In this document: positions 2,175-11,474 of the stretch, piece after piece | Position numbering within the stretch: the stretch's first letter is position 1 | Layout: each line of letters begins with the position of its first letter | UHGV virus genome: UHGV-0044052 | Origin: a virus | DNA: 11,474 nt | Reading direction: 5' to 3' (one strand) | Program-made: the position numbers and the translations under genes | Notes under the pieces: generated by a model | Seen by the model: only the letters and a program-made list of their open reading frames with translations | Database searches by the model: none | Told to the model about the DNA's origin: nothing

Positions 2175-2350
2175 TAATACACCAACTTAATTACTGCTTC
2201 AGGTTGGTGTATTGTTTGCATCTTTCCCTTTTCATTCATAAAGATAGAGCAAACAACAAAACCACCACCACCCCCCTGAAAAAGCTCATAAATAGCGAAA
2301 AACCGCGAGGTCGCCGCCCCGTAACGGGCCATAATTCCAGGAAGGACCCG
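2175..2350 (-). other. Second cos site (cos B), inverted relative to cos A, directly upstream of the TerS gene
   Basis: Minus strand reads cgggtccttcctggaattatggcccgttacg | GGGCGGCGACCT | cgcggtttttcgctatttatgagc. The cosN complement aggtcgccgccc is at 2308-2319. It forms a ~54-bp near-perfect inverted repeat with 1409-1462 (one indel). The cosB-equivalent region differs from cos A and contains a 9-bp-stem hairpin (tacaccaac / gttggtgta) just before the TerS start. Confidence 0.75.
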
Positions 2351-2379: not shown

Positions 2380-2793
2380 TCAGATGGTTTTCAGTATGCG
2401 ATCGATGTCGCCGTCATCGCCTGGGTTTCTGCCATCGTATGCCATGCCAGCTGATACGGTTTGTGGGCTGTGCATGTCCATAAAGTTTTCAAAGGCTGCG
2501 GTAAGCTCTGGTGCAACCTTCGGGCGTTCCTGCTCTATGGTCATGTTCAGGATGTTTTTAGCCGTATCAACATCGATACAAGGCACGTTTGCCATTGCAC
2601 GCAACAGCGGCTGATAGTCTTTATGCTCATGAAGCGCCATAATCGCATCAGCGCGCGGCTTGTCCTGCTCTTCCAGTTTGTTGAGTTGATATACGGCCTC
2701 GTAGGTTGATAAACCTCTGTCAGCCATTGCCCGCGCTTCGGCTTTAAATTTACTCGCCAGCGGTAGCGCCATGATGCTTTCATTCGTTGCCAT
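2380..2793 (-). CDS. Hypothetical protein (137 aa) in the head module
   Basis: ORF with a strong SD (GGGGGA) 4-5 nt upstream of the ATG at 2793, immediately downstream of the decoration gene. No recognisable family. Confidence 0.6.
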   Translation of the reverse strand: MATNESIMALPLASKFKAEARAMADRGLSTYEAVYQLNKLEEQDKPRADAIMALHEHKDYQPLLRAMANVPCIDVDTAKNILNMTIEQERPKVAPELTAAFENFMDMHSPQTVSAGMAYDGRNPGDDGDIDRILKTI

Positions 2794-2805: not shown

Positions 2806-3093
2806 TTATCGGGCCAGCGGCTGAACGGATACGCCAGAACCCGCAAAGGCGGCGCATTTTTTCGCATCGGTGTCGACGCTCTCAGGCCAGTTAACGGCGG
2901 CAATATTGAATATCCCCGTCTTGTAACACTGTGCTGATTTCTGCTTTGACGTGTCCACGAGGTACGAAGTCAGATAAACAGCCTTGCCAGATTCCTGACC
3001 ATCCCACGGCTTAAACTCGCCATTGTCCGCCAGCATCAGCGGCAAAATGTACCAGCGTCGTGGATACCTGCTGACTGCCTGCAAATAACTCAA
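2806..3093 (-). CDS. Head decoration protein, lambda gpD-like (start uncertain)
   Basis: LPLMLADNGEFKPWDGQESGKAVYL...YKTGIFNIAAVNWPESVDTDAKKCAAFAGSGVSV aligns with lambda gpD [27 protein letters not shown]...[35 protein letters not shown]. The ORF as drawn starts at a TTG. The only SD-preceded ATG nearby (3109) is in another frame. Confidence 0.7.
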   Translation of the reverse strand: MSYLQAVSRYPRRWYILPLMLADNGEFKPWDGQESGKAVYLTSYLVDTSKQKSAQCYKTGIFNIAAVNWPESVDTDAKKCAAFAGSGVSVQPLAR

Positions 3094-3120
3094 TGTATGG
3101 AGTGTCCATAGAATCCCCCG

Positions 3121-4176
3121 TTAAGCAATTTTGACGGTAACAAATTTGCGAATATCTGCCGGAACCGGCTGCGGTGCGCTGTGCGTCTGCACGTACTCAA
3201 TCGCCGGATCGCCGTCCTCAATCCAGTTTTTCGGGTAGTACATGTTTTGCGTTGCGCCTGTTCTTACCGCTTCCTGATCCATAATCGCACCATAGGCCAC
3301 CAGCCCTTTGTTGTTGGTGTTGCCCAGGACCAGCAAATCAGGATCAAGGAAATATTTTTCTGTGCCGTCGCTGTCAGTGTATTTGCCGGAATAGACGATA
3401 AGGGCAATATCGCCCAGATAGCCTTTAAAGCTCACCACTTCGCCCAGGTTTTTACAGGCCAGCTCTGCGGCGGACTCTGAACCACGGGAAAGATCGTACA
3501 GCTCACGGAATTTTTTAAAGCTGCGTAACGTTCGCCATACCTCAACGCCCATAATCATGACGTTTGCGGGGCAACCAGCCTGATCGGCGTATAGTTCGAT
3601 ATCATAGATTGGATCGTGGGTTTCTTTGTCCTGCTCTGACCATTTTTTCCCGTCGGCCTGCTCTATGATGTTTTTTTCCGGTATCTTCCAGTCGATTTCA
3701 TAGCGCTCTATGCCTTCGCCCTCAATGATGTTTTTTCCGGTCGTTACCGCATTTACCGCCAGCCATTCCACGCGCGCTTTTATGGCGTTTATCTGGCGGC
3801 GCATATTGCCAGTAATCAGGCGCATACGGCGATAGGTAGGGTCGTTAAGCTGTGCCGGATCTTCTCCAGCCATGCGCATGATGGTTTTCGTTGGATCGAT
3901 TTCGTGCTTTGGCTTCATGTAGCCAGGTTTAATCGTGCTGGTTTCGTACCCTTTATCGCGCTGAACCTGGCTACCCACCATAGGCGAACAAAACGCCGAC
4001 ATGGTGACTTCTTCAATGTCCAGGGTATCCAGCATGATGTTTTGCGTGTTGAATGTCGCCACGTTCGGGAAAAACAGCGCGGTAAACAGCGGACTAAATT
4101 TAAATTCCGCAATATCCTCGCGATTCAGGTACGCGAAAAGCTGGTGTGTGTTAAGTGCCATTGCTTTGACTGCCAT
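3121..4176 (-). CDS. Major capsid protein, lambda gpE-like (HK97 fold)
   Basis: 351-aa product with conserved blocks shared with lambda gpE along its length: EFKFSPLFTALFF / KFKFDPLFLRLFF, KPGYMKPKHEIDP / TPGYVKPKHEVNP, DPTYRRMRLI / DPAYRRRRII, GDIALIVYSGKY / GDVAIVVYSGQY, YYPKNWIEDGDPA / RYPKNWVTTGDPA, SAP near the C-terminus. Confidence 0.9.
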   Translation of the reverse strand: MAVKAMALNTHQLFAYLNREDIAEFKFSPLFTALFFPNVATFNTQNIMLDTLDIEEVTMSAFCSPMVGSQVQRDKGYETSTIKPGYMKPKHEIDPTKTIMRMAGEDPAQLNDPTYRRMRLITGNMRRQINAIKARVEWLAVNAVTTGKNIIEGEGIERYEIDWKIPEKNIIEQADGKKWSEQDKETHDPIYDIELYADQAGCPANVMIMGVEVWRTLRSFKKFRELYDLSRGSESAAELACKNLGEVVSFKGYLGDIALIVYSGKYTDSDGTEKYFLDPDLLVLGNTNNKGLVAYGAIMDQEAVRTGATQNMYYPKNWIEDGDPAIEYVQTHSAPQPVPADIRKFVTVKIA

Positions 4177-4382
4177 TATTCACCCCCATGAGTCTGATTT
4201 ATGCCCAGCGCCGCGCGTAAATAGGAGCGTACCTGCCAGCCTGTTGACGGCTCAACCATCGCCAGCGGATCAAGTCCTGCCGCAATGCCTGCTTTTACGT
4301 TCTGCTGGTGGCGTTCCTTGAGCGCCTTCACGATGTCGGGGCTTATGTACACCGAAACACCGCCTTTTTTCTCTTCAGCCAT
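4176..4382 (-). CDS. Hypothetical protein (68 aa), first gene of the late operon
   Basis: ORF with SD AAGAGGA upstream of the ATG at 4382. Its stop overlaps the capsid gene start (TAATG), suggesting translational coupling. No recognisable family. Confidence 0.5.
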   Translation of the reverse strand: MAEEKKGGVSVYISPDIVKALKERHQQNVKAGIAAGLDPLAMVEPSTGWQVRSYLRAALGINQTHGGE

Positions 4383-4417
4383 AGTAAGAAATTCCTCTTT
4401 GACTTAAAAAATCATAA

Positions 4418-4466
4418 CTGGATGTTCATCCAGCTCTGATTATAATCATGATTGCATTTTGTGCAA
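4418..4466 (-). promoter_or_regulatory. Putative late (head operon) promoter with palindromic operator
   Basis: On the minus strand, TTGCAC (plus 4461-4466) - 16 bp - TATAAT (plus 4439-4444), followed by the inverted repeat CTGGATG-nn-CATCCAG (4418-4433) at the predicted transcription start. An ATTGCA-n-TGCAAT palindrome overlaps the -35. Confidence 0.45.
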
Positions 4467-4545
4467 TGATGTTGAGTTGCGTTGCAAATTATGAAATGAT
4501 TATCCCGATCATGTGTGTCAGTGCACCAAAAAGCCTCATATGCAA

Positions 4546-4586
4546 AAGCCCGATAAGCCACCTCTGACCTTATCGGGCTTTTTTAT
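4546..4586. terminator. Strong hairpin, likely insulating terminator between replication and late modules
   Basis: Perfect 11-12-bp stem AAGCCCGATAAG / CTTATCGGGCTT with a T-run (tttttt) on the plus strand and a shorter U-run on the minus strand. Confidence 0.5.
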
Positions 4587-4599
4587 CTGCCTGCAAAGA

Positions 4600-4760
4600 T
4601 GTCGAACGAAAATTAACCACAACCATCATCTTTTTTGCATCAAAACAATTAAAAACAATAAATTACGCTCATGATGATGATGACGATAAAATCACAAAAA
4701 TGCGCTTTTTTCCGCGCCTCCCGCCCCGTGTTCAGGCCCACCCCGCCAGGAGGACCCGTA
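4600..4760 (-). other. Degenerate cos-like relic (third copy)
   Basis: On the minus strand, ...acgggtcctcctggcgggg...acggggcgggaggcgcgg resembles cosQ-cosN but the cosN core is disrupted (GGGGCGG-GAGG-CGCGG versus GGGGCGGCGACCTCGCGG). Downstream, atcgtcatcatcatcatgagcgtaatttattgtttttaattgtttt resembles the lambda cosB I1 region (tcgtcataacttaatgtttttatttaaaat). Confidence 0.5.
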
Positions 4761-4782
4761 AAAAAGCCGGATTGCTCCGGTT
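4758..4782 (-). terminator. Rho-independent terminator after ssb
   Basis: Hairpin GCCGGA-ttgc-TCCGG with a T-run on the minus strand (plus-strand aaaaaa at 4760-4765). About 35 bp here nearly repeat 2337-2376. Confidence 0.55.
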
Positions 4783-4797
4783 TCTGTCACTCGTCGC

Positions 4798-5782: not shown

Positions 5783-7537
5783 TTATAAAAACGCGTCGCA
5801 ATCGTCTGTTGTTATTGCGTTAGTCTGCGTTACTCCTTTAACTTTCCGCGTAATATATTCATGTCCGTAAACTTTCGCGGCTGGCTTCATAGCCTTGCCA
5901 AAGTCATTTACGTTTAGCGGTTTGCTCCTGCCTGCGTACGCCATAAACGCCAGATAGACGCGGTAAAGGCTGTTTCTGGTCGTGTACTTCACTGAATCGC
6001 CACCGCCGCCCATCATCAGGCCGCGTGCTTCCTCCAGAAAATTCAGGAACTGGCAAAACTCAATAACCGGATCCGTCTGTTGCTTTATTGCCAGTGCTTC
6101 ATCACCGTCACGCTGTTCAATGAGTAAAGCCCGTGCCTTTTCAGGGTCGGCAAAGTTCGCCAGCAAGCGGCGGATAATGACAGGGATTTCAGCCGCGATC
6201 TTTTCCGGTAGCTCCCTGTCTTTTTCTGCCTCGCTTACGATGTTATCGAACCGGAATATCACCCGACGACGTGCCACACCTCCGGCCCGTTCGGTGAATA
6301 TCATCGGATTGTTATTGGTTGCCAGCACCACCGCCCTGATTACCGCCGTAAAACGCTTTTCATATTTCGGGTTAATTTCCACGGGGTCGCCGCCCGTGAT
6401 TTTCTTGATGCCCGTTCCTTCGCCTGTATATTTCGGCTGGTCTGCCAGGACGATAAGACGACTCCCGACAACCTGCGCACGCCCACCAGCATCATCAAGC
6501 GATGTCATTTCAGCGCTTACCGTGTTTTGTTTCCCTGCCAGAAGGCTGGCTATGTGTGTGAATGTACTTTTACCGCTCCCGCCGTCTCCGGTGGCCTCAA
6601 TAAACATCTGCCAGTCGTACCGGTTCGCCATAATCATGTACAGCGCGGCACATATACGCATCATCTTGCGCGGGTCTTTTCCGGCTGCGTGCTCAAGCCA
6701 TTTATGAAAGTTTGGCGCGTTATCGCGGATGTTCTCCCCTGGTGCTGGTGGCGTGTACTCAATGCCGTTGTGCGTGGTGATCCAGTTCTCCGGCGTGTGC
6801 GGGGAAAATTCCCCCGTTTTCAGGTCAAGCGCACCATTGGCGAACGGCAGCAAATCGCCGGACGGCTCGCCCATTGGTTCGGCAATAACTTTTAACGCTT
6901 CCACGGCGTTATTGATTACGCGCTTGCTGAAAGTGGCCCTGTGCTCTGAATAGATCGCCACCATTTCGCGGCTAAGTTCCATTGTGCTGACCGGACACCA
7001 TACCCCGCCGCGCCATACGTGAACGATTTCACTTTCAGGATGTACGCAAACGCCATCAAAGCGATCGGCAAGCAGCTGCGCGCGCTCACTGTCCGCCATC
7101 TGCGAAAGTTGCGCCTTTTGCTTTACCGGAAGCTCAATGACCAGACCATCAGAAAGATTCTGGCGCTCACGGGCCAGATATTCGCGCCAGTTCTCCACCT
7201 TCTGACCGTGCATACCATCAGGGTAAAAATTTGCATCCTGTACGCCTGCCGCCGCCAGCTTCTGACCAATCGCCTTTATCATTACTGGCGCAAGATATCC
7301 GGCCCTGAATATGCGCACGGATTTTCTGCCTTCCGGCACAATTTGCAGCTTATCCAGTTCTGATAACTGCTGCTCCCCAAGCCACACAGGAGGCTCATTA
7401 TCTCCGGCCATACGCGCATCATGTTCCTGCCATTGTTTCGCGTGTGCCCAGGCATCACTACCCGCAAAAATAATGACTTCTGTTCCTTTGTGTTTTATGC
7501 CGCGTGACTGCTGTTTTACGTTCGGTGCCAGTTTCAT
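5783..7537 (-). CDS. Replication primase/helicase (P4 alpha / D5-like, SF3 helicase domain)
   Basis: 584-aa product with Walker A GDGGSGKST in the central region and a C-terminal region plausibly DNA-binding. SD AGGGGT upstream. Start overlaps the preceding ORF stop (ATGA). Domain assignment is from motifs only. Confidence 0.8.
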   Translation of the reverse strand: MKLAPNVKQQSRGIKHKGTEVIIFAGSDAWAHAKQWQEHDARMAGDNEPPVWLGEQQLSELDKLQIVPEGRKSVRIFRAGYLAPVMIKAIGQKLAAAGVQDANFYPDGMHGQKVENWREYLARERQNLSDGLVIELPVKQKAQLSQMADSERAQLLADRFDGVCVHPESEIVHVWRGGVWCPVSTMELSREMVAIYSEHRATFSKRVINNAVEALKVIAEPMGEPSGDLLPFANGALDLKTGEFSPHTPENWITTHNGIEYTPPAPGENIRDNAPNFHKWLEHAAGKDPRKMMRICAALYMIMANRYDWQMFIEATGDGGSGKSTFTHIASLLAGKQNTVSAEMTSLDDAGGRAQVVGSRLIVLADQPKYTGEGTGIKKITGGDPVEINPKYEKRFTAVIRAVVLATNNNPMIFTERAGGVARRRVIFRFDNIVSEAEKDRELPEKIAAEIPVIIRRLLANFADPEKARALLIEQRDGDEALAIKQQTDPVIEFCQFLNFLEEARGLMMGGGGDSVKYTTRNSLYRVYLAFMAYAGRSKPLNVNDFGKAMKPAAKVYGHEYITRKVKGVTQTNAITTDDCDAFL

Positions 7538-7833
7538 TTTTTACCCCTGAATCCGTTAATCATGGTTTTCAGCTTCTGGATGTTTGCCCGTGCCCTGGCG
7601 TTGCTGGTGGGCACGTTATGCGGCGCGGTCTGTACCAGAGAAAAATCACGCCGGAACTGATAAACAGGCATCACGCAATCATATTCGTAACCTTCACGGC
7701 GGTAAGTTACGCACCGTCCCGCCACGCCCTTAATCATTACCGTGCCGCCGTACTGGTCGCGGTAAATATCGCCGCGCGTAAATTTAGGGTGAGTGTTGCC
7801 ACTGGCAGTTAAGCCAGAATATTTAAGTTTCAT
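7534..7833 (-). CDS. Hypothetical protein (99 aa), early operon gene 6
   Basis: ORF with SD GGAGAA upstream, stop overlapping the primase start (ATGA). Basic C-terminus. No recognisable family. Confidence 0.55.
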   Translation of the reverse strand: MKLKYSGLTASGNTHPKFTRGDIYRDQYGGTVMIKGVAGRCVTYRREGYEYDCVMPVYQFRRDFSLVQTAPHNVPTSNARARANIQKLKTMINGFRGKK

Positions 7834-10145: not shown

Positions 10146-10170
10146 TAAAAAAAGCGGCATTTCTGCCGCT
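10146..10170 (-). terminator. Rho-independent terminator after the int-proximal small ORF
   Basis: Hairpin AGCGGCA-tttc-TGCCGCT (10153-10170) followed on the minus strand by a 7-nt T-run (plus-strand aaaaaaa at 10146-10152). Confidence 0.6.
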
Positions 10171-10180
10171 TCCAGGATTG

Positions 10181-10411: not shown

Positions 10412-10509
10412 CTTAACGGTTTCATGTTTCACGGCCTTGTCGTTAAATTTGATGCAATTATACGACGGTTTTACATGGTTTTCGTAGTTTTTACTGGTTT
10501 TCTGTACAG

Positions 10510-11474
10510 CTACACGGCTCGGATACCCCTTTTACCACTGGCGAGGGTTACGCCCGTCGCCGCAGCCTCGACAAATTCGCCCCACCAGCGCATCAGCACG
10601 ATGCGTTTTTCTATGTAGTTGCTCCGGTTGTATGCCCGTCTAACTTCGTTGGTGTCGACGTGGGCAAGTGCCGCCTCTATTACGTCCGGCTCGAATCCTT
10701 CCTCGTTCGCTGCTGTGCTGAATATGGCGCGTAATCCATGAGACACCAGCACGCCAGCGAATCCCATACGCCGCAATGCTGCGTTAGCTGTCTGGCTGTT
10801 CATCGGCTGCTGTGGGTCTTTCAGACTTGGGAAAACGTAATTGCGGTGGTGGCTGATTGGTTTCATGGCCTCCAGCACCGCCATAGCCTGACCGGAAAGC
10901 GGGATAACGTGATCCCTGCGCATCTTCATGCGTCCGGCAGGTATCGTCCATTGCTTCGCGTCCAGGTTGATTTCATCCCACCGCGTTGATGACGCTTCGG
11001 CGGGACGGGTTACGGTCAGTAACTGCCATTCAATCAGTAATCTGGTCTGCCGTTCTGTTGCCGATACTGATAAAGCCTGCATAAGCTCCGGCAGCTGTTC
11101 GGGGCGGATTGTTGGCATATGTTTTTTTACAGGTGAGGGAAACGCCTTACGCACATTCATAGCCGGATTGGCATCAATCAGCCCACTGTTGGCGGCGTAA
11201 TCCATTACCTCATTAACGCGCTGTAAAACCCGCTTGAGTGTTTCCAGGTTGCCGCGCTCCTTGATGGGTGTAAGCACTTCAACGAACCTTCGGGCGGTGA
11301 GGGTATCTATTGGCGTGTTGCCGATGAACGGGAATACATATTTATCCAGCGAACGCCAGATGTCTTTAATCGTGTTGGGGGCCAGATTCTGGCTGATTTT
11401 CACCTGGTACCATGCCGCCGCCACATTTTCGAACGTGTTCCCTTGTCTTCGGGCCTCTGTCTCTCTTTTTTGCC
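10510..11474 (-). CDS. int: Tyrosine integrase, P4-type (N-terminus beyond window end)
   Basis: C-terminal catalytic region with HGLRAIFSTAANEEGF...ALAHVD...VRRAYNRSNY (conserved R, H-x-x-R and Y). The reading frame stays open upstream of the listed GTG through the window edge (...TEARRQGNTFENVAAAWYQ), matching the NTFE..A..W motif of P4-family integrase N-termini. Confidence 0.9.
   Translation of the reverse strand, partial: QKRETEARRQGNTFENVAAAWYQVKISQNLAPNTIKDIWRSLDKYVFPFIGNTPIDTLTARRFVEVLTPIKERGNLETLKRVLQRVNEVMDYAANSGLIDANPAMNVRKAFPSPVKKHMPTIRPEQLPELMQALSVSATERQTRLLIEWQLLTVTRPAEASSTRWDEINLDAKQWTIPAGRMKMRRDHVIPLSGQAMAVLEAMKPISHHRNYVFPSLKDPQQPMNSQTANAALRRMGFAGVLVSHGLRAIFSTAANEEGFEPDVIEAALAHVDTNEVRRAYNRSNYIEKRIVLMRWWGEFVEAAATGVTLASGKRGIRAV

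Follow-up and report, generated by a model that had tools for sequence, protein, structure and literature searches.

A predicted LexA operator on the promoter of the capsid-like module in EcCICFT073-type phage-inducible chromosomal islands of Escherichia coli

The DNA analyzed here (the window; the whole 11,474-nt, i.e., 11.5-kb, stretch of virus genome UHGV-0044052) is an EcCICFT073-type phage-inducible chromosomal island (PICI) of Escherichia coli, which places it among the Gram-negative cos PICIs. It is 100% identical to the island of E. coli Nissle 1917 and ATCC 25922 except for one 32-bp gap, and in these and related strains the counterpart island is integrated beside tRNA-Pro/yejM. EcCICFT073 itself is the prototype Gram-negative phage-inducible chromosomal island (PMC6092414). 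Islands of this type were recognized by int, an alpA-type regulator and P4-type primase/replication genes, followed by capsid-like, decoration-like and Nu1/Rpp-like genes, together with a length of about 10-15 kb and a fixed integration site. The window has this layout according to the gene order obtained from Pfam matches and the Nissle annotation. All island genes are carried on the minus strand. The integrase is followed by a 76-83-aa gene, an AlpA-type HTH regulator, Icd-like and further small genes, and RgdR (DUF4222); the middle of the island holds a P4/D5-type primase, a 92-aa gene and SSB; and the last part comprises a 68-aa gene, gpE-like and gpD-like genes, a 137-aa gene, a Nu1-like small terminase/Rpp-type gene and a 93-aa gene. 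When the EcCICFT073 sequence was compared, both the gene order and the regulatory region 5′ of c1498 were the same as in the window.

Features of the capsid-like module and its surroundings, as well as a site beside int, are listed in Table 1. Homologues of the 68-aa protein encoded by the first gene were found in Enterobacteriaceae islands only. This protein produced no Pfam or NCBIfam match even at E = 10; its AF2 model consists of two helices (pLDDT 74.5), and a Foldseek comparison of that model with the PDB returned nothing below E = 3. The 68-aa protein was also considered as a ribbon-helix-helix binder of the dyad over the -35 described below, an idea that gained no support from the Pfam/NCBIfam and Foldseek searches. 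The two genes that follow are gpE-like and gpD-like, and for EcCICFT073 c1499 has been described as a homologue of capsid proteins and c1500 as one of decoration proteins (PMC6092414). Compared with Nissle 1917 and every other top match, the window lacks 32 bp at 3042/3043 between two direct repeats (CCGCTGATGCTGGCG); this deletion is the sole difference between the window and those matches, and it frameshifts the gpD-like gene. Beyond the fourth gene, a 75-nt inverted repeat (1409-1481 and 2279-2350, 88-96% complementary) brackets the Nu1-like/Rpp-type gene (1632-2174), and both of its copies hold the hairpin CGGGGCGGCGACCTCG followed by TTTTT. On the other side of the module, the ~210 bp at 4585-4797, from ssb to the strong terminator, are non-coding here; in many relatives, EcCICFT073 and the O157 islands among them, this position is occupied by a gene for a PerC-family regulator. 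A search of Rfam identified no RNA family anywhere in the window.

Table 1. Positions of genes and regulatory elements of the capsid-like module, and of a second LexA-type box, in the window
Feature	Position	Strand	Basis and remarks
Terminator-like hairpin	2306-2321	-	Terminator scan; within the 75-nt inverted repeat
Fourth gene, 137 aa, c1501 homologue	2380-2793	-	ORF; co-regulated with c1498-c1500 in CFT073
Lambda gpD-like head decoration gene	2806-3109	-	PF02924; frameshifted here by the 32-bp deletion
Lambda gpE-like major capsid protein homologue, c1499 homologue	3121-4176	-	PF03864, E = 3e-52
First gene of the unit, 68 aa, c1498 homologue	4176-4382	-	ORF; ATG at 4382
Shine-Dalgarno AAGAGGA of the 68-aa gene	4393-4399	-	Sequence; conserved in alignment A1
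Predicted LexA-type SOS box, 20-mer AGCTGGATGAACATCCAGTT (minus strand)	4416-4435	.	Core CTG-N10-CAG at 4418-4433 is the 7-bp palindrome
-10 hexamer TATAAT	4439-4444	-	Perfect; within self-complementary GATTATAATC; (nearly) invariant in alignment A1
Dyad ATTGCA-N5-TGCAAT (= ATTGC-N7-GCAAT)	4451-4467	.	Arms 4451-4456 and 4462-4467; covers the -35 and the upstream half of the spacer
-35 hexamer TTGCAC	4461-4466	-	3/6 consensus matches (TTG only); TTGC invariant in alignment A1
AT-rich conserved block CATTTCATAATTTGCAAC	4481-4498	-	About -75 to -55; single copy in the window
Intrinsic terminator	4544-4584	-	10-bp GC-rich stem and U tract, A tract upstream; dG -24.3 kcal/mol
Terminator-like hairpin right after the ssb stop codon	4767-4780	-	Scan; hairpin and T run; also in relatives
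Second LexA-type box, AGCTGTACAGAAAACCAGTA on the minus strand	10492-10511	.	HI 9.62; overlaps the int stop codon

Transcription of the capsid-like module from ssb by read-through is unlikely because two terminators sit between ssb and the promoter. The stronger hairpin (4544-4584) has a z-score of -4.39, and none of 200 shuffles folded as well. A relative with 71% identity (L008) carries a different hairpin of equal strength at the same place, so terminator function is conserved at this site though its sequence is not. In published RNA-seq data for CFT073 after a shift from 23 to 37 °C (PMC12890032), the log2 fold changes were 0.31 for the primase, 0.36 for c1496 and 0.24 for ssb (all n.s.), followed by 2.24 for c1498, 2.05 for c1499 (p = 3e-17), 1.45 for c1500 and 1.17 for c1501, and then by 0.33 for c1503 and 0.58 for c1505 (both n.s.). 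As four genes only were co-induced, the step starts at c1498, behind the promoter, and stops after c1501, in agreement with the terminator-like hairpin at 2306-2321, which probably ends the four-gene unit. Together, the terminators, the conservation of the promoter and the CFT073 RNA-seq data indicate that the promoter for the capsid-like module is separate and real, and that the unit consists of about four genes encoding the 68-aa, gpE-like, gpD-like and 137-aa proteins. Read-through from ssb, raised as the alternative in the original prediction, is thus opposed both by the two terminators and by an expression step that begins at c1498 while ssb is unchanged. The term “head operon” used there overstates a unit of about four genes that is not needed for EcCICFT073 transfer.

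The promoter elements belong to the minus strand, as the gene behind them has its ATG at 4382 and reads to lower coordinates. On this strand TTGCAC is followed by a 16-bp spacer and TATAAT, with CTGGATGAACATCCAG 5 bp further on; the regulatory region runs from cATTGCACaaaaTGCAATcatgatTATAATcagagCTGGATGAACATCCAGttatgatttttt to AAGAGGA and on to ATG. Transcription is predicted to start ~7 nt past the -10, at about 4431-4433, which lies within the left arm of a CTGGATG-nn-CATCCAG palindrome. Hence, a sigma70-type promoter of the module's own with an operator-like palindrome on its start, as originally proposed, has been borne out, while its description as near-consensus applies to the perfect -10 and not to the -35, which matches at 3/6 positions; for this reason the promoter is absent from the list of a consensus scan. 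The 16-bp spacing, within the 16-18 bp expected, the upstream terminators and the CFT073 expression step are those of a sigma70 promoter, with a 3/6 -35 and a predicted start, and the promoter core was kept in all relatives examined from E. coli, Salmonella and Pluralibacter.

A second palindrome noticed earlier, ATTGCA/TGCAAT over the -35, is also present, and reaches one base beyond the promoter interval first delimited. The perfect ATTGCA-N5-TGCAAT dyad occurs once in the window; with up to one mismatch there are three copies, a number that 22 of 200 shuffles reach and that is not unusual. Across E. coli, Salmonella and Pluralibacter the arms of this dyad are conserved and its centre is variable. 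The AT-rich block further upstream is possibly a UP-like element or a factor site, and its TTTCAT is near-invariant in alignment A1, including in the capsid-forming island L009. Both the dyad and the block are conserved across genera, and in L009 they also precede an HK97-type capsid gene. Neither element has a further copy at the alpA promoter or in the rest of the window, and AlpA as a shared regulator is therefore not supported. The promoter module had no homologue in 50,697 phage records, and none of the consensus sites for Fur, ArgR, CRP, FNR, FadR, IHF, lambda CII, Ogr, PurR, TyrR and NtrC was found above chance at the promoter.

The palindrome on the start (plus strand 4418-4433, CTGGATG-TT-CATCCAG; CTGGATGAACATCCAG on the minus strand) has perfect 7 + 7 arms and a 2-nt spacer. 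Perfect palindromes with 7-bp arms are not unusual as such (10 in the window vs 5.6 ± 2.8 in shuffles). Its features are those of a LexA operator: a CTG-N10-CAG dyad with an A/T-rich centre, a score in the range of known operators and overlap with a promoter, as the box starts 5 bp past the perfect -10 and spans the predicted start. Both half-sites are CTGGAT and not CTGTAT. The centre, GAAC, is half A/T, and O157 and Salmonella variants have AAAC, AAAT or GAAA in its place. For scoring, the 18 E. coli boxes documented in PMC3009722 Table 4 were turned into a symmetrised count matrix, and a heterology index (HI) of the Berg-von Hippel/Lewis type was calculated; as the matrix is our own, values are not identical to the HI of Lewis et al. 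The 20-mer at 4416-4435 scored HI 8.44 (18.7 bits) and is the best LexA-matrix site in the window. Known operators scored by leave-one-out ranged from HI 2.0 to 17.0, including ruvA (8.6), cho (8.0), lexA (8.1) and recA (7.1), and 13 of the 18 known boxes scored better than this site and five worse on the symmetrised matrix. In 2000 dinucleotide-preserving shuffles, 0.001 sites at HI ≤ 8.5 are expected per window, so that, unlike the bare palindrome, the match to the matrix lies far beyond chance. Against an idealised 20-mer LexA consensus the site matches at 12/20 positions, which is not unusual, so the case for LexA rests on the weighted matrix, the accepted scoring for LexA sites. Overall, we consider the palindrome a predicted operator of host LexA, the SOS repressor, with a probability of roughly 0.6.

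Conservation of the box was assessed in relatives and in a survey blind to it. In E. coli islands the box keeps its position down to an identity of about 81%, and Salmonella islands, whose 68-aa proteins are 58-68% identical, carry GACTGGATAAATATCCAGAT and GACTGGATGAAAATCCAGTA. Pluralibacter gergoviae carries AACTGGATGTTTGTCCAGTT about 13 bp further downstream from the -10, a displacement suggesting that the motif has been kept rather than its position. In the two Pluralibacter loci (L013/L014) the box lies ~47 nt upstream of the start of the 68-aa gene and abuts a T run directly, and a degenerate remnant (ACTGAATTTTTAACTGG) is still found at the ancestral box position. Neither the 68-aa protein nor the capsid protein found anything when GTDB genome contigs were scanned with it, and other genera were reached instead by way of protein homologues and the contigs encoding them. 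For the box-blind survey, IMG/VR and metagenome contigs were scanned for the dyad plus the -10 only, yielding 53 distinct family sequences from 124 loci in one register, all with the box 2 nt after the -10 block. None of the six CTG and CAG columns was variable and, with these included, one of 12 arm columns, compared to three of the central four, three of the four flanking (2 + 2) and 46 of the 91 other free columns (51%); arms differed from the other free columns with a Fisher p of 0.006. Most of the surveyed sequences are closely related, so part of this conservation is shared ancestry. Conservation of the promoter and operator elements across relatives is beyond chance. The sole arm change, ATCCAG to ATACAG, was observed in three sequence contexts. 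It abolishes both the palindrome and hairpin pairing and improves the LexA match (HI 7.3 to 6.4), and no other observation distinguishes as well between a LexA site and the alternatives of a generic palindromic operator or an RNA stem.

The box is dispensable, as two lineages without it have retained the promoter, i.e., the E. coli E9 type (L008 and L019) and the capsid-forming islands (L009). In the two box-less lineages the -10 reads TAAAAT, in the E9 type as a weakened form of TATAAT. In L008 and L019 the right half of the box is missing (ACTGACTTTTCGTTATG) alongside this weaker -10, and the weakening may make up for the lost repressor site. In L009 the upstream half of the promoter is shared and the box is absent.

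The window holds another LexA-type box, which overlaps the int stop codon (Table 1). Among 2000 dinucleotide shuffles of the window, 0.05% had two sites at HI ≤ 10. This second box lies ~29 nt upstream of a TATAAT (about 10457-10462) preceding the 76-83-aa gene, which is monocistronic (ORF 10181-10411/10432, minus strand) and has its own terminator (10150-10173). It is non-palindromic and cannot form a hairpin. Five E. coli islands have conserved it with HI 7.9-10.8 between flanks of only about 80% identity, in the variants AACTGTACAAAAAGCCAGTA, AACTGTACAAAAAACCAGTA and GACTGTACAAAAAAACAGTA, and the box is kept even where the downstream gene differs. That the gene after the second box is RgdR was ruled out, as RgdR is the DUF4222 protein at 7534-7833. 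EcCICFT073 carries the box on the head promoter (HI 7.34). Its int-alpA spacer (L025, 4289-4308) contains a further LexA-like site, TACTGTTTTTTTATACACTG, with HI 8.85 and a right half of CAC rather than CAG, about 220 bp upstream of alpA. Expression of EcCICFT073 alpA is reported to be helper-dependent and SOS-independent (PMC6092414), which shows that LexA-like sites in islands of this kind are not necessarily functional.

An alternative that we consider improbable is that the palindrome is the operator of another dimeric DNA-binding protein, encoded by the island or a helper, and that its likeness to a LexA site is coincidental. Such an operator would account for arms (CTGGAT/ATCCAG) that are conserved beyond the CTG/CAG most needed by LexA, and for a unit that responds to temperature without SOS; moreover, the promoter holds another conserved dyad, and the first product of the unit, being small and helical, could be an autoregulator. 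However, the 68-aa protein is without a family or fold match and no candidate protein could be identified, none of the other operator consensus sites compared exceeds chance, and there is no match in the 50,697 phage records. The recurrent ATCCAG to ATACAG change, which breaks the palindrome and moves the site towards the LexA consensus, and the conservation elsewhere in the island of a second LexA-type box that is not a palindrome are likewise at odds with this explanation. A helper-specific operator in particular is argued against by the mobilisation of these islands by several different helpers (PMC6092414).

It is very unlikely that the palindrome works as RNA, either as a 5′ stem-loop stabilising the mRNA or as a weak attenuator with the downstream U run. 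A terminator scan did flag AGCTGGATGAACATCCAGTT followed by ATGATTTTTT, an 8-pair hairpin would form if transcription started upstream of the palindrome, the Pluralibacter hairpin abuts TTTTTT directly, and the centre, which would be the loop, is variable while the arms are not. Yet the fold is weak (z = -1.7; 10 of 200 shuffles fold as well), its short stem contains 3 G-C pairs with the U run 6 nt off in most members, and the hairpin is gone if the start lies within the left arm, as the position of the -10 predicts. There are no compensatory changes, the sole arm change (C to A) producing a G-A mismatch, and the second box cannot fold. Accordingly, the palindrome was not classed as an intrinsic terminator/attenuator. 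About equally unlikely is a functionless palindrome, a vestige or chance likeness to LexA at a promoter controlled by the -35 dyad, the AT-rich block and nucleoid proteins (e.g., H-NS-type temperature silencing), since the commonness of 7-bp palindromes, the retention of the promoter in lineages without a box and a temperature induction independent of SOS are outweighed by a matrix-score expectation of 0.001 per window, the invariance of CTG/CAG against a background of 51% variable columns and the retention of the motif after its displacement in Pluralibacter.

Returning to host LexA as the predicted binder, sigma70 RNA polymerase would use TTGCAC-16-TATAAT and initiate about 7 nt downstream, and in undamaged cells a LexA dimer on CTGGATGAACATCCAG would hinder open-complex formation or promoter escape. 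Upon DNA damage, activated RecA would promote self-cleavage of LexA and the module would be derepressed by the same signal that induces lambdoid helper prophages. A second input through the ATTGC-N7-GCAAT dyad and/or the AT-rich block would provide a temperature response independent of SOS. We infer both LexA binding and repression at the promoter and the second input at the dyad or AT-rich block. The CFT073 data bear on how complete such repression could be: c1498-c1501 were measurably expressed and rose 2- to 5-fold on the shift from 23 to 37 °C without helper or SOS induction, and in the same shift sulA, dinB, dinI, umuD and uvrB were unchanged. As the unit is expressed and temperature-induced without a change in SOS genes, LexA would not be its sole control and repression is incomplete; the -35 dyad and the AT-rich block may mediate this SOS-independent induction. 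The proposal that the promoter is tightly repressed until helper induction is therefore doubtful as far as “tight” is concerned, while repression until helper induction is probably correct and fits a LexA box, as SOS also induces the helper prophage. Control by a helper-encoded factor, also suggested originally, is not supported, as nothing in the sequence hints at one, the promoter module has no match in the 50,697 phage records and no Ogr/Delta or CII site exceeds chance; DNA damage, rather than a helper-phage protein, is the signal that most likely switches the module on, judging from the sequence.

A broader and more tentative proposal, to which we give clearly less credence than to the operator itself, is that PICIs of the EcCICFT073 family are wired into the host SOS regulon at two points, the capsid-module promoter and the int stop codon, with the promoter acting as a two-input gate that would require release of LexA and a factor at the dyad. 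That factor would be island-encoded, helper-encoded or temperature-linked, and the satellites would sense damage themselves. Literature searches on control of E. coli PICIs by LexA or SOS yielded nothing beyond citations of SaPI work, which is also the only context in which papers on EcCICFT073 mention LexA, and a search for ChIP, EMSA or SOS-induction data on this promoter found none; a LexA-controlled capsid-like module of the kind predicted here would thus be without earlier description for Gram-negative PICIs in the searchable literature.

The only SOS transcriptomes found were of EDL933, treated with ciprofloxacin or other antibiotics. They were considered as counter-evidence, since with ciprofloxacin the capsid gene of CP-933C changed -1.8-fold, and were dropped because CP-933C is of the capsid-forming type. 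CP-933C (O-island 51, Z1835-Z1857) encodes an HK97 capsid, protease, portal and terminase. It is the same island type as L009, which lacks the box, and the non-induction of its capsid gene is consequently no test of the box; the same data showed no induction of ruvA, ruvB or uvrB either. The CP-933C primase was up 5.3-fold in the ciprofloxacin-treated cells, in which the capsid gene was not up.

The closest regulatory parallel is found in Gram-positive satellites, where operon I (the packaging module) of SaPIs is LexA-controlled (Ubeda et al. 2007, as summarised in PMC5052747). Both are phage satellites with a capsid/packaging module downstream of the replication genes, and in both, by prediction here, this module has its own promoter controlled by the SOS repressor, apart from the island master switch. 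In contrast to the island in the window, SaPIs are Gram-positive and their genes unrelated, LexA control is experimental there and predicted here, and the master switch is the Stl repressor rather than the AlpA activator. The Gram-positive SaPI LexA box is of the CGAAC-N4-GTTCG type.

Among E. coli operators, the boxes of ruvAB (CTGGATATCTATCCAG) and cho (CTGGATAGATAACCAG) share the CTGGAT half-site and the CTG-N10-CAG spacing with the palindrome (PMC3009722 Table 4), and the arms of the ruvA box are the same as those at 4418-4433. Scores are also comparable (HI 8.6 for ruvA and 8.0 for cho vs 8.4 here). They differ in that the centre here is GAAC, resembling the GAGC centre of the recA box, and in that the box here is a predicted site on the promoter of a mobile element and not of a repair gene. 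Strong promoters with one or more LexA boxes directly after the -10 and tied to SOS, as predicted here, are known from colicin operons and from LexA-controlled prophage modules such as coliphage 186 tum and the Gifsy antirepressors; unlike here, colicin promoters have two overlapping boxes, and modules of the 186 tum/Gifsy type encode antirepressors or toxins and not capsid homologues.

The late promoters of satellite P4, Psid and PLL, are activated by P2 Ogr or P4 Delta at TGT-N12-ACA. As satellite promoters for capsid-related genes they are the closest model for a helper-encoded factor; however, the -10 here is perfect and the promoter should need an activator less. The best match to TGT-N12-ACA near -55 was 4/6, which every shuffle reaches, and the promoter is not of the P2/P4 type; nor was a CII-type site found above chance at the promoter.

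According to the current description, Gram-negative PICIs depend on a helper for their induction through AlpA, and SOS contributes only indirectly, through induction of the helper prophage. If the present reading is true, LexA operators on the capsid-like module and beside int would give the island a direct line to the damage response, mirroring SaPI operon I, and this would suggest convergent regulatory logic in unrelated satellites. The weight of this finding is limited by the genes concerned, which are without known phenotype, and by LexA control being a sequence-based prediction. The region is carried by about 11% of complete E. coli genomes, and both the probiotic Nissle 1917 and the reference strain ATCC 25922 have the island. 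The promoter drives the “adaptable module” c1498-c1501, which has been replaced by cargo (cas9, melA) in engineered EcCICFT073, and, if the reading is true, SOS-inducing antibiotics would raise the expression of whatever cargo occupies this module.
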